From assembly GCF_013315695.1 (NCBI RefSeq), contig NZ_CP054353.1: a stretch of DNA of 64,000 nt, one strand, 5' to 3'. A program made the translations under genes and the position numbers. Every line of letters begins with the position of its first letter. Position 1 is the first letter of the stretch. The stretch is from Escherichia coli (GTDB lineage Bacteria > Pseudomonadota > Gammaproteobacteria > Enterobacterales > Enterobacteriaceae). Under the pieces are notes generated by a model. It was not told where the DNA came from. It saw nothing but the letters and a program-made list of their open reading frames with translations, and did no database searches. Positions 2,714 through 31,957 of this stretch are shown piece by piece.

Positions 2714-4738
<2,025 letters not shown>

Positions 4739-4799: not shown

Positions 4800-5798
4800 T
4801 CAGGCGTTGGCGTCTTTGACTTCGCGGATGATGTCCTGGTACTCGCGCAATTTCTGCGGAGTCATCATACGGCGCTGATCGTCAAGCACTACACCGCCCA
4901 CTTCATCGGCAATATGCTGCGCAGATTGCAGCATCAGCTTGAAGTTCTGCAGCTCGTCACCGTAAGACGGTACCTGCATAAAGATAGTGACACCCGGAGT
5001 AGTGAAATCCTTCATTTCAGGATCAAAGGTTCCCGGTTTCACCATATTCGCCAGGCTAAATAACGCCGGGCCGCTGCCATCCGGGCTAAGATGACGATGG
5101 TAAATATTCATATCGCCAAAAATGAAGCCCGCTTGTTGAATGCTGTTAAGAAGCAGTTCACCGTTTAGCTCGCTACCGTGATGCGCCGCGACGTTCATGA
5201 TAATCACCGCTTCTTTGCGCTTCGGTTTATCCATAACTGGAGCCGGTTCCGCTACAGGCTCAGGCTGTGGTGCCGCTACAGGCTCTGCAGGCTGGAAAGC
5301 CTGTTGTGCCGGTTGCGGTGCTGAATGCACTGGCTGCGGCGCTGATGCGACCTGTGGCGAAACTGGCTGCTGCAACGGCTGTTCAGGCTGCGGCTGATAG
5401 GCAGGCTGCTGCACGGGTTGCTGCACCGGCTGCGCTGGACGCGGAGCATGTTGCGGCGGTACCTGAGCTTCAGGCGGCTGCTGGACCGGTTGACGCGGCT
5501 GCGCAGACGCATAAGGCGGTTGGTACTGGTGTTGCGGCGACGGACGAGCAGCCTCATGCTCCTGGGCGTTAGCCGGGGCATGATTCACGCGGTGAACTCG
5601 AACCTCACCAACGCCCTCATCATCTTCGACATCCTCGTCATAAGAATCGTCGTCACGTTTTGACTTCATTCGTTTTAATGGCCGATCGCGGAACATAGAA
5701 GATCGTTCTTTACGGCTGGTCCAGAAACCATGTACCAGTAAAGCGATTATGGCGATCGCGCCAACAATGATTAATATCAGACGCAAATCCTGCATCAT
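4800..5798 (-). CDS. zipA: Cell division protein ZipA (FtsZ membrane anchor)
   Basis: Product begins [25 protein letters not shown] (N-terminal TM anchor) at tandem ATG at 5798; long P/Q-rich linker; ORF track start at 5849 is an upstream extension. Confidence 0.93.
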
Positions 5799-6027: not shown

Positions 6028-6789
6028 ATGGTTTCATCATTCACATCTGCCCCACGCAGCGGTTTTTACTATTTTGCGCAAGGCTGGAAGCTCGTCTCGC
6101 AACCTGGGATTCGGCGTTTCGTTATTTTACCGCTGCTGGTCAATATTTTGTTGATGGGGGGCGCATTCTGGTGGCTATTTACGCAGCTCGATGTCTGGAT
6201 CCCGACGCTCATGAGTTATGTTCCGGACTGGTTACAATGGCTGAGCTATCTGTTGTGGCCTCTGGCAGTCATCTCCGTGCTGTTAGTGTTTGGCTATTTC
6301 TTCTCAACGATTGCTAACTGGATTGCCGCTCCGTTCAACGGTTTATTGGCTGAACAACTGGAAGCAAGATTGACTGGCGCTACACCGCCAGATACCGGGA
6401 TTTTCGGTATCATGAAAGATGTGCCGCGAATCATGAAACGCGAATGGCAAAAATTTGCCTGGTATCTGCCGCGCGCAATTGTATTGCTAATTCTTTACTT
6501 CATCCCTGGTATTGGGCAAACCGTCGCGCCGGTACTATGGTTCCTGTTTAGCGCCTGGATGTTAGCCATCCAGTATTGCGATTACCCCTTCGATAACCAC
6601 AAAGTGCCGTTTAAAGAGATGCGCACCGCCCTGCGCACACGCAAAATCACCAATATGCAGTTTGGTGCTTTAACCAGCCTGTTTACGATGATCCCGCTGC
6701 TTAATCTGTTCATTATGCCCGTTGCCGTTTGTGGCGCGACGGCGATGTGGGTCGATTGCTATCGCGATAAACACGCCATGTGGCGGTAA
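6028..6789 (+). CDS. cysZ: Sulfate transporter CysZ
   Basis: 253-aa multi-TM ORF; upstream of cysK as in cys regulon. Confidence 0.9.
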
Positions 6790-6973
6790 CAATCTACCGG
6801 TTATTTTGTAAACCGTTTGTATGAAACAGGGGTGGCTTATGCCGCCCCTTATTCCATCTTGCATGTCATTATTTCCCTTCTGCATATAGATATGCTAAAT
6901 CCTTACTTCCGCATATTCTCTGAGCGGGTATGCTACCTGTTGTATCCCAATTTCATACAGTTAAGGACAGGCC

Positions 6974-7945
6974 ATGAGTAAGATTTTTGAAGATAACTCG
7001 CTGACTATCGGTCACACGCCGCTGGTTCGCCTGAATCGCATCGGTAACGGACGCATTCTGGCGAAGGTGGAATCTCGTAACCCCAGCTTCAGCGTTAAGT
7101 GCCGTATCGGTGCCAACATGATTTGGGATGCCGAAAAGCGCGGCGTGCTGAAACCAGGCGTTGAACTGGTTGAACCAACCAGCGGTAATACCGGGATTGC
7201 ACTGGCCTATGTCGCTGCCGCTCGCGGTTACAAACTTACCCTGACCATGCCAGAAACCATGAGTATTGAACGCCGCAAGCTGCTGAAAGCGTTAGGTGCA
7301 AACCTGGTGCTGACCGAAGGTGCTAAAGGCATGAAAGGCGCAATCCAAAAAGCAGAAGAAATTGTCGCCAGCAATCCAGAGAAATACCTGCTGCTGCAAC
7401 AATTCAGCAATCCGGCAAACCCTGAAATTCACGAAAAAACCACCGGTCCGGAGATCTGGGAAGATACCGACGGTCAGGTTGATGTATTTATTGCTGGCGT
7501 TGGGACTGGCGGTACGCTGACTGGCGTCAGCCGCTACATTAAAGGCACCAAAGGCAAGACCGATCTTATCTCTGTCGCCGTTGAGCCAACCGATTCTCCA
7601 GTTATCGCCCAGGCGCTGGCAGGTGAAGAGATTAAACCTGGCCCGCATAAAATTCAGGGTATTGGCGCTGGTTTTATCCCGGCTAACCTCGATCTCAAGC
7701 TGGTCGACAAAGTCATTGGCATCACCAATGAAGAAGCCATTTCTACCGCACGTCGTCTGATGGAAGAAGAAGGTATTCTTGCTGGTATCTCTTCTGGAGC
7801 AGCTGTTGCCGCGGCGTTGAAACTACAAGAAGATGAAAGCTTTACCAACAAGAATATTGTGGTTATTCTACCATCATCGGGTGAGCGTTATTTAAGCACC
7901 GCATTGTTTGCCGATCTCTTCACTGAGAAAGAACTGCAACAGTAA
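6974..7945 (+). CDS. cysK: Cysteine synthase A (O-acetylserine sulfhydrylase A)
   Basis: 323-aa ORF with PLP-binding lysine motif (SFSVKCRIG) and glycine-rich loop GVGTGGT. Confidence 0.97.
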
Positions 7946-20132: not shown

Positions 20133-21557
<1,425 letters not shown>

Positions 21558-30595: not shown

Positions 30596-31957
30596 TCAGA
30601 AGAACAGTGACGGATCGCCCGCCCGTTTGGTCAGGCGACCGTTTGCCATAATGCCCATGCTTTCCAGCCAGCGTTCAAACTCCGGTGACGGGCGCAGGTT
30701 GAGTAACTGACGCACAGTGGCAGTGTCGTGGAATGCGGTGGTCTGATAGTTGAGCATGATGTCATCACCCAGCGGCATCCCCATGATGTAGTTGCAGCCT
30801 GCGGTGGCGAGCAGGATCATCAGGTTTTCGTTGAGGTTCTGGTCAGCGTCAGCGTGGTTGGTGTAGCAGCAGTCACAGCCCATAGAGATGCCGCTCAGCT
30901 TGCCCATAAAGTGATCTTCTAAGCCCGCGCGGATAATCTGGCGGTCGTTGTAGAGATACTCCGGCCCAATAAAACCGACCACGGTGTTGACGATAAACGG
31001 ATCGTAATGACGCGCCAGCCCATAGTTACGCGCTTCCATCGTCACCTGGTCAGCGCCGAAGTTAGCGCCAGCAGACAGCGCCGAACCTTGTCCGGTTTCG
31101 AAGTAGAGGCAGTTTTCCCCAGCGATACGGTTAAACTCTGCACCCACTGCGCGCGCTTCGTCGAGCATCGCCAGCTCCACGCCAAACTCTTTCAGCCCTT
31201 TTTCGCTGCCGCAAATACTCTGGAAAATCAGCCCGCCCGGTGCGCCGCGACGAATCGCTTCGATCTGGGTGGTGACGTGCGCCAGTACGCAGCCCTGAGT
31301 TGGGATGTTGAATTTGTCGATCACGCCATAGATGGTATCCAACACGCGGCTTAAGTTTTCCACGTCGTCCGTCACCGGGTTAACGCCGATCACCGCATCG
31401 CCCACCCCGAAGGAAAGCCCTTCGTAGATTTGCGCGGCGATACTTTGCACATCGTCACGGGTATCGTTTGGCTGCAAGCGGGCGCTAAAGGTGCCCGGAA
31501 TACCGATGGTGGTATTGGCCTTTTTGATCACCGGCATTTTCTTCGCGCCGTAGATCAGGTCCGCGTTAGAACTGATCTTCGCCACCGCCGCGACCACTTC
31601 CGAGGTCAGCCCTTTGCGGGTAAAGGCAATGTCGTCAACGCTGGTTTCGTCGCTCAGGACGTATTCACGCAGTTCGCTGATGCTCCAGTTTTTAATCTGG
31701 TTGTAGGCCGTTTCGTTAACATCGTCCTGAATCAGCCGCGTCACGCAGTCATCTTCATAGGCAATCACCGGATTATTGCGGATGTCCGCTACGGTCATTT
31801 CCGACAACACCTGCTTTGCCGCCACGCGCTCCTGTGAACTTGCCGCTGCAACGCCTGCCAGCACATCCCCCGAACGCAGTTCGTTGGCTTTAGCCAGCAC
31901 CTCTTTTACATCCTTAAACTGATATACATTGCCGAACAATGTGGTCTTTAGTTTCAT
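30596..31957 (-). CDS. eutB: Ethanolamine ammonia-lyase large subunit
   Basis: 453-aa ORF. Confidence 0.96.
   Translation of the reverse strand: MKLKTTLFGNVYQFKDVKEVLAKANELRSGDVLAGVAAASSQERVAAKQVLSEMTVADIRNNPVIAYEDDCVTRLIQDDVNETAYNQIKNWSISELREYVLSDETSVDDIAFTRKGLTSEVVAAVAKISSNADLIYGAKKMPVIKKANTTIGIPGTFSARLQPNDTRDDVQSIAAQIYEGLSFGVGDAVIGVNPVTDDVENLSRVLDTIYGVIDKFNIPTQGCVLAHVTTQIEAIRRGAPGGLIFQSICGSEKGLKEFGVELAMLDEARAVGAEFNRIAGENCLYFETGQGSALSAGANFGADQVTMEARNYGLARHYDPFIVNTVVGFIGPEYLYNDRQIIRAGLEDHFMGKLSGISMGCDCCYTNHADADQNLNENLMILLATAGCNYIMGMPLGDDIMLNYQTTAFHDTATVRQLLNLRPSPEFERWLESMGIMANGRLTKRAGDPSLFF

Follow-up and report, generated by a model that had tools for sequence, protein, structure and literature searches.

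Natural in-frame length variation of the P/Q linker of ZipA in Escherichia coli and its probable origin by slippage between short direct repeats

The Pro- and Gln-rich tract that lies inside zipA in the stretch of E. coli DNA analyzed here (64,000 nucleotides, referred to below as the window) is the linker of the cell division protein ZipA, and it varies in length between strains. Very probably, this variation is generated by slippage between short, in-phase direct repeats, and the products are then filtered by selection acting on an essential gene. In the following we present the identity of the gene, the composition and predicted disorder of the linker, the census of its natural length alleles, and the sequence of the indel junctions, together with the alternative readings on which each of these bears.

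The zipA coding sequence, as defined by the open reading frame (ORF) list and by the sequence, occupies positions 4800 to 5798 of the minus strand (999 nt, 332 codons plus the stop codon) and starts with ATGATG at 5798. Its product, when queried without the first four residues, matches the NCBIfam equivalog TIGR02205 (septum_zipA) with 413.5 bits (cut-off 119.65), and it contains the FtsZ-binding domain PF04354 (ZipA_C; E value of 3.1e-46, 156.9 bits in Pfam). The matching gene is annotated as zipA in 5,425 of 5,426 complete E. coli genomes, and the zipA DNA of the window is 100% identical to the RefSeq-annotated zipA of E. coli ATCC 11775. The flanking genes, ligA (2714 to 4729, minus strand) and cysZ/cysK (6028 to 7945, plus strand), represent the usual E. 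coli arrangement, the cysZ/zipA/ligA context being found both in the ORF list and in the RefSeq annotation of six strains; the content of the whole 64-kb window corresponds to the dapA-eut-cys-ptsHI-crr-cysK-cysZ-zipA-ligA region, as in the ATCC 11775 chromosome. With respect to K-12, the ZipA protein of the window is 99% identical and shows a second VQQP unit and three amino acid substitutions, with no residue differences in the FtsZ-binding domain. Judged by its sequence, the window gene is ZipA, since it presents every defining feature of this protein that can be recognized at the sequence level, while the binding of the FtsZ C-terminal peptide and the requirement for division are predicted properties. 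The preliminary description of this DNA, made from the letters alone, had placed the repeat-rich tract (5230 to 5580, corresponding to residues 73 to 190) inside zipA, and on this placement TIGR02205, PF04354, and the RefSeq annotation agree.

The arrangement of the protein follows that published for K-12, where the membrane helix spans residues 7 to 28, the charged domain residues 29 to 85, the PQ domain residues 86 to 185, and the FtsZ-binding domain residues 186 to 328 (PMC6904479); it is because of these limits that residues 86 to 189 are taken here as the P/Q domain. The N-terminal membrane anchor (residues 1 to 28; 5715 to 5798, minus strand) was delimited with the published limits, with the hydrophobic sequence, and with the AlphaFold model, and the hydrophobic stretch at residues 7 to 28 and the predicted helix at residues 2 to 32 (pLDDT 86 to 96) are those of a single N-terminal transmembrane anchor. 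The following domain (residues 29 to 85; 5544 to 5714, minus strand) is recognized by its composition, rich in R, D, E, and K, and the sole indel found in it among roughly 110 protein clusters is the insertion of a single E at about residue 80. [quoted passage not shown] These chains align to residues 189/193 to 332, the isolated-domain structures beginning at residues 189 to 194. PDB entry 9iue holds the full-length 328-aa ZipA sequence in 18 chains. The window tract and the K-12 P/Q domain, which passages of PMC6904479 attribute to Hale and de Boer 1997 and Ohashi et al. 2002, share the gene, the position, the composition, and the helix-charged-P/Q-FtsZ-binding architecture, and they differ through the second VQQP unit, the linker counting 104 residues in the window and 100 in K-12.

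The AlphaFold prediction, run with a 71-sequence family alignment, places neither helix nor strand between about residues 33 and 175 (pLDDT 46 to 60), whereas the folded domain at residues 190 to 332 is predicted with the high values given above. The P/Q linker is thus predicted to be disordered, with no stable structure in the model. Among the cited literature, Ohashi et al. 2002 is quoted in a passage of PMC6904479 as describing the P/Q region as an unstructured flexible tether, while PMC6904479 argues that in lipid particles this region is packed more tightly than a free tether would be. In 116 full-length representatives of the ZipA family, the region between the anchor and the folded domain has a median length of 156 aa (interquartile range 130 to 182, with extremes above 300), and P and Q make up a median fraction of 0.13 of it, compared to 0.37 in the ZipA of the window. 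It follows that a variable spacer is general to the ZipA family and that the P/Q richness is lineage specific. One distant relative in this family (P0206, 874 aa) gave three matched stretches and apparently carries several ZipA_C-like domains in tandem. A comparable element is the C-terminal linker of FtsZ, an unstructured spacer between a folded domain and an anchoring element of the Z ring, whose length and sequence vary between species. The two linkers resemble each other in being disordered, variable spacers of the Z ring, but they belong to different proteins, differ in composition, and are not claimed to be homologous; the FtsZ linker is mentioned in PMC8669495, a paper on the folded domain of ZipA.

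The composition of residues 86 to 189 (P 30% and Q 25%, that is, 55% P+Q, with A 15% and V 10%) and a Shannon entropy of 2.78 bits, compared to 4.11 in the C-terminal domain, show the enrichment in Pro and Gln and the low complexity that characterize a P/Q tether. At the DNA level, the GC content of the tract is 65.5%, against 53.1% across the whole window, and its 23 repeated 8-mers are more than are found anywhere else in the 64 kb over the same length of 312 nt, where the mean is 1.9. In the shuffling tests, the 24 repeated 8-mers counted were to be compared with 4.8 ± 3.1 after dinucleotide shuffling (none of 1000 shuffles being as high) and with 12.5 ± 5.0 after shuffling of the codon order (25 of 1000 being as high), so that the excess over the latter is modest, and no significant excess of 10-mers or longer words was detected in the tract. 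Tandem Repeats Finder at a score of 30 reported no array in zipA, an ungapped repeat search recovered short families only, and no homopolymer or simple-sequence run was found in the tract.

Two local duplications could be recognized. The first consists of two tandem 12-nt units, GTGCAGCAACCC and GTGCAGCAGCCT, at 5403 to 5426 of the minus strand, which encode VQQP-VQQP and were placed by alignment as a single event, the K-12 type having one unit; with just two units that are identical at 10 of 12 positions, they do not amount to the head-to-tail periodic array of a tandem repeat. The second, found by a repeat and pattern search, is the 13-nt exact repeat GAGCCTGTAGCGG, which occurs twice, 24 nt apart (5249 to 5261 and 5273 to 5285, minus strand), where it encodes EPVAAPQP and EPVAEPAP. 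Furthermore, the short motif CAGCCG has five copies within 126 nt (5376 to 5501), compared to 60 on both strands of the whole window. Identical 7-mer pairs spaced by 12 to 150 nt number 54 in the P/Q DNA, of which all except one (53 of 54) lie at a multiple of 3, the corresponding numbers elsewhere in zipA being 2 and 0. The so-called repeat tract is therefore mainly low codon diversity combined with two small local duplications, and not a periodic array. As regards the preliminary description, which had proposed a linker encoded by degenerate repeats, the tract is in fact the most self-similar 312 nt of the 64 kb, but Tandem Repeats Finder and the codon shuffles speak against a true array. 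Its quoted peptide matches ZipA exactly, and its example of a repeat is the one at 5249 to 5285; the 41-mer that it gave was located at 5245 to 5285 of the minus strand with a single wrong base, the first one, where the DNA has G and not C.

The proposal that the linker could differ in length between strains was examined by aligning zipA across strains. An alignment of five strains presented three lengths: the window shares the 332-aa form with O157:H7, K-12-like and APEC strains are shorter by one 12-nt VQQP unit (328 aa), and strain EM10-18-28, with a 111-nt deletion, has 295 aa. For the census, a 200-nt probe across the hotspot was compared to 5,427 records of complete E. coli genomes. The records with 90 to 95% identity over a 188-nt span, which reflects the 12 nt missing from the K-12 type, amounted to 3,048, those with at least 95% identity, corresponding to the two-unit type, to 2,378, and those with coverage below 80% to 62. 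A second method used 25 junction-specific probes in one concatenated query, devoid of any 28-mer from the four full-length alleles; two probes derived from the protein-only alleles P0011 and P0003 were left out owing to unclean back-translation. These probes matched 251 records, from which 189 were removed as false positives arising from the single-nucleotide polymorphism Q107P, leaving 62. The two independent methods agree, therefore, on 62 complete-genome records with large in-frame indels, and of the 5,426 complete genomes about 56% are of the 328-aa type (one VQQP unit), about 43% of the 332-aa type (two units), and 1.1% of other types. Q107P itself (CAG to CCG at codon 107, window 5478 to 5480), present in 189 complete E. 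coli genomes, gives 36-nt matches to one of the junction probes.

Nearly half of the 62 records (30) carry the 300-aa allele, with an 84-nt deletion with respect to the K-12 type; they are isolates of human and bovine origin with genomes of about 5.4 Mb, among them strain ML775 (L005, 617 to 1519) and an O103 strain, and the allele looks like a clonal lineage marker. About 22 more carry the 309-aa allele, among them the O25:H4 strain CU568-3, where the coding sequence is annotated with 930 nt (L018, 523 to 1452). The 305-aa allele accounts for two records, one being the complete genome HCP5S3_I2, the 341-aa duplication allele for one (MS14386; L017, 463 to 1488), and other alleles, including those of 314, 303, 308, and 295 aa, for seven. 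In a larger protein collection, the E. coli ZipA clusters range from 295 to 375 aa. Where both ends of the cluster sequence are intact, the 85 N-terminal and the 143 C-terminal residues are 98 to 100% identical to those of the window, and the middle segment counts 70 to 147 residues. Natural alleles with middle segments in this range occur in viable strains. Alignment of 101 distinct middle segments revealed at least 25 indel structures, all within about residues 99 to 185, plus the single-residue insertion at about residue 80. Moreover, among the four full-length E. coli alleles the linker shows 2.9 variable sites per 100 nt, compared to 0.7 to 0.8 in the flanking domains, and all three non-synonymous differences fall in the linker. 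A length of 308 aa is found on two backgrounds, VASAP and VAPAP (proteins P0051 and P0060), which suggests an independent recurrence of the deletion or recombination. In Escherichia albertii, ZipA has length classes of 321 and 331 aa with the same hotspot (P0080 and P0110 compared to P0016 and others). Both the expected length polymorphism and a repeat structure were thus found, the former as two major alleles of 328 and 332 aa with at least 25 others, from 295 to 375 aa, confined to the linker.

It could be objected that such length differences are artefacts of assembly or annotation in a repetitive, GC-rich stretch, and several of the extreme alleles are indeed each represented by one draft or metagenome contig, with possible assembly errors, as for the 375-aa allele, which lies on a 3.5-kb contig; for singletons such as this one the objection may hold. 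As an account of the variation as a whole we regard it as extremely unlikely, given that variants are found in finished chromosomes, with one junction in 30 and another in about 22 independent complete genomes, that the 309-aa protein is indexed in 1,861 blocks of a public collection, and that the frame is kept in all variants, which random misassembly would not do. Since one allele recurs in 30 and another in about 22 finished genomes, the large-indel alleles are inherited and do not represent noise.

To characterize the junctions, the DNA of eleven rare alleles was considered, each being treated as the outcome of one event on a backbone of the 332 or the 328 type. All the indels examined are multiples of 3 nt and lie inside the coding sequence. 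Among the deletions, those of 111 nt (295 aa) and of 60 nt (308 aa, for which 72 nt is also given) have the 8-nt junction repeat CAGCAGCC, that of 69 nt (309 aa) has the 9-nt repeat GCGCAGCCG, that of 84 nt (300 aa) the 7-nt repeat CGCAGCC, and that of 72 nt (304 aa) the 8-nt repeat GCAGCCTG; in the two remaining cases, of 66 nt (310 aa) and 54 nt (314 aa), the best placement leaves 1 and 2 exact nucleotides, respectively, with a 7-nt repeat adjacent. In particular, two copies of GCGCAGCCG at 5496 to 5504 and 5427 to 5435 (5427 to 5504 overall, minus strand) delimit the deletion seen in the 309-aa allele (69 nt) and its counterpart in the 305-aa allele, and three copies of CAGCAGCC at 5476 to 5483, 5404 to 5411, and 5365 to 5372 (5365 to 5483 overall, minus strand) bound the 111-nt and the 60/72-nt deletions. 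Exact junction repeats of 7 to 9 nt occur, therefore, in five of seven DNA-verified deletions, whereas random in-frame deletions of 36 to 111 nt in the same tract would have a junction repeat of at least 7 nt in 2.4% of cases (binomial P = 1.5e-7).

In the duplications (39, 51, 81, and 141 nt) the segment is copied perfectly and in tandem. For three of the four, the parental sequence has flanking repeats of 6 to 10 nt (CAGCCG for the 51-nt and CGCCGCAACA for the 81-nt duplication), the 141-nt one being without. The 51-nt segment, flanked by CAGCCG at 5427 to 5432 and 5376 to 5381 (5376 to 5432 overall, minus strand), is perfectly duplicated in the 349-aa allele. Its 39-nt equivalent in the K-12 type is present in one, two, and three copies in the proteins of 328, 341 (MS14386), and 354 aa (L007), respectively, and once duplicated this segment acts like a small true tandem repeat.

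Variation in copy number (the 12-nt unit at one or two copies, the 39-nt unit at one to three) is a feature shared with the VNTR and contingency loci of pathogens, and it is what would speak for a true VNTR-like or contingency locus in zipA, where length would change at high frequency and act as a switch. Different from such loci, zipA lacks a long array, frame shifting, and any sign of rapid switching: neither the array nor the homopolymer or simple-sequence runs searched for in the tract were found, two alleles account for 98.9% of the complete genomes, and the rare alleles are common to related genomes, which points to slow clonal inheritance. In addition, every change is in frame and nothing is turned on or off, neither by a frame shift nor through a promoter. 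We consider this reading very unlikely.

Slipped misalignment, by which the DNA between short direct repeats is deleted or duplicated, is a general mutational mechanism of bacteria. The zipA alleles resemble its products in their junction repeats of 6 to 10 nt, in their perfect tandem duplications, and in the retention of one repeat copy, with the difference that in zipA the mechanism is read entirely from natural alleles. The P/Q domain is written in few codons (CAG, CCG, CCT, GCN, and GTG), and it is because of this restricted vocabulary that the DNA is rich in direct repeats of 6 to 13 nt that keep to the reading frame. As we would reconstruct it, misalignment between such repeats during replication, a slipped-strand event that is presumably RecA independent, would delete the intervening segment or duplicate it in tandem, and the products would be in frame because the repeats are in phase. 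In zipA, an essential gene in which the FtsZ-binding domain follows the linker, only in-frame events would survive, and since a flexible tether would function at various lengths, many of the length changes would persist and become lineage markers. We infer slippage from the products preserved in the alleles and, likewise, the near-neutrality of the length changes; mutational bias, selective tolerance, or both may underlie the variation.

A different interpretation takes the P/Q region as a specific binding or assembly module, in which the length or the number of repeats would tune FtsZ bundling and the alleles would be adaptive. MAP/Tau-like repeats in ZipA were proposed by RayChaudhuri 1999, as cited in a passage of PMC6904479. 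Such an interpretation could draw on the lineage restriction of the 300-aa allele (in a group including the O103 strain) and of the 309-aa allele (in a group including the O25:H4 strain), as well as on the location in the linker of all three non-synonymous differences mentioned above. However, the natural deletions remove different, overlapping parts of residues ~99 to 185, which argues that no single segment is indispensable, the family as a whole does not share the P/Q richness, as the median P+Q fractions reported above indicate, and the tract has no repeat periodicity. We therefore judge a specific module to be unlikely. Improbable to the same degree is the related idea that linker length is a selected tuning parameter, with slippage supplying graded tethers of 70 to 147 residues; if this were true, tether lengths would alter the spacing between the Z ring and the membrane or the bundling of FtsZ, and the lineage-fixed alleles of 300 aa (O103 group) and 309 aa (O25:H4 group) would reflect adaptation. 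The linkers of ZipA and FtsA were reportedly found to be dispensable in a 2020 J Bacteriol study, which serves here as background and not as evidence.

The tract is also covered by other ORFs. Five of at least 40 aa besides zipA overlap it, two of them with 101 aa: the longest antisense ORF (5267 to 5572, plus strand) and one in another frame of the zipA strand (5276 to 5581, minus strand), both taken from the ORF list and both without a Pfam match. Since these two frames are open across the tract and the summed ORF coverage of the tract falls in the top 1.5%, one of them might be thought to be a real gene nested in zipA or antisense to it. This appears close to impossible: no Pfam match was obtained for the four largest non-zipA ORFs and RefSeq annotates none, the translations are rich in A, R, and L, as mirror images of the P, Q, and A codons, six of its nine variable sites are third positions of zipA codons, indicating that substitutions track the zipA frame, and the count of ORFs is ordinary. 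In fact, including zipA there are six over the tract, compared to a mean of 4.8 ± 1.5 over the window, and 31% of the stretches compared reach six; stop codons are mildly depleted, with 16 against 24.8 ± 6.4. The preliminary description had explained a cluster of spurious overlapping ORFs by the repeats; what holds is that the ORFs are long, with a coverage in the top 1.5%, and that they are by-products of composition, while in number they form no unusual cluster. For annotation, the lesson is that long ORFs in several frames across tracts of this kind are composition artefacts.

In the window as a whole (1 to 64000), no Rfam family scored as high as its gathering threshold, and neither tRNA nor tmRNA genes were found. 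The only tandem-repeat call in the window is a weak array of a 13-nt unit with 2.8 copies at 31051 to 31085. Other repeat-rich or stop-poor spots, at about 37.4 kb, 12.3 kb, and 36 to 40 kb, turned out to be ordinary eut and other coding sequence. Between yfeX and murP, the ATCC 11775 record has a short pseudogene that RefSeq lists as partial ("hypothetical protein, incomplete"; 1454487 to 1454573, corresponding to about 20691 to 20777 of the window).

As a feature, the tract is already known and ordinary: it is the textbook P/Q linker of ZipA, here in the form that ATCC 11775-like strains typically carry. Variation in ZipA length is readily visible in RefSeq protein lengths and is expected of a low-complexity, disordered linker; the literature searched yielded no previous account of length alleles of zipA in nature. 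What the present analysis adds is a catalogue of natural linker lengths, together with the observation that repeats in phase with the reading frame explain the in-frame products. The length alleles of zipA are usable as cheap lineage markers, and their catalogue represents a natural experiment on the length of tether that is tolerated by an essential division protein.
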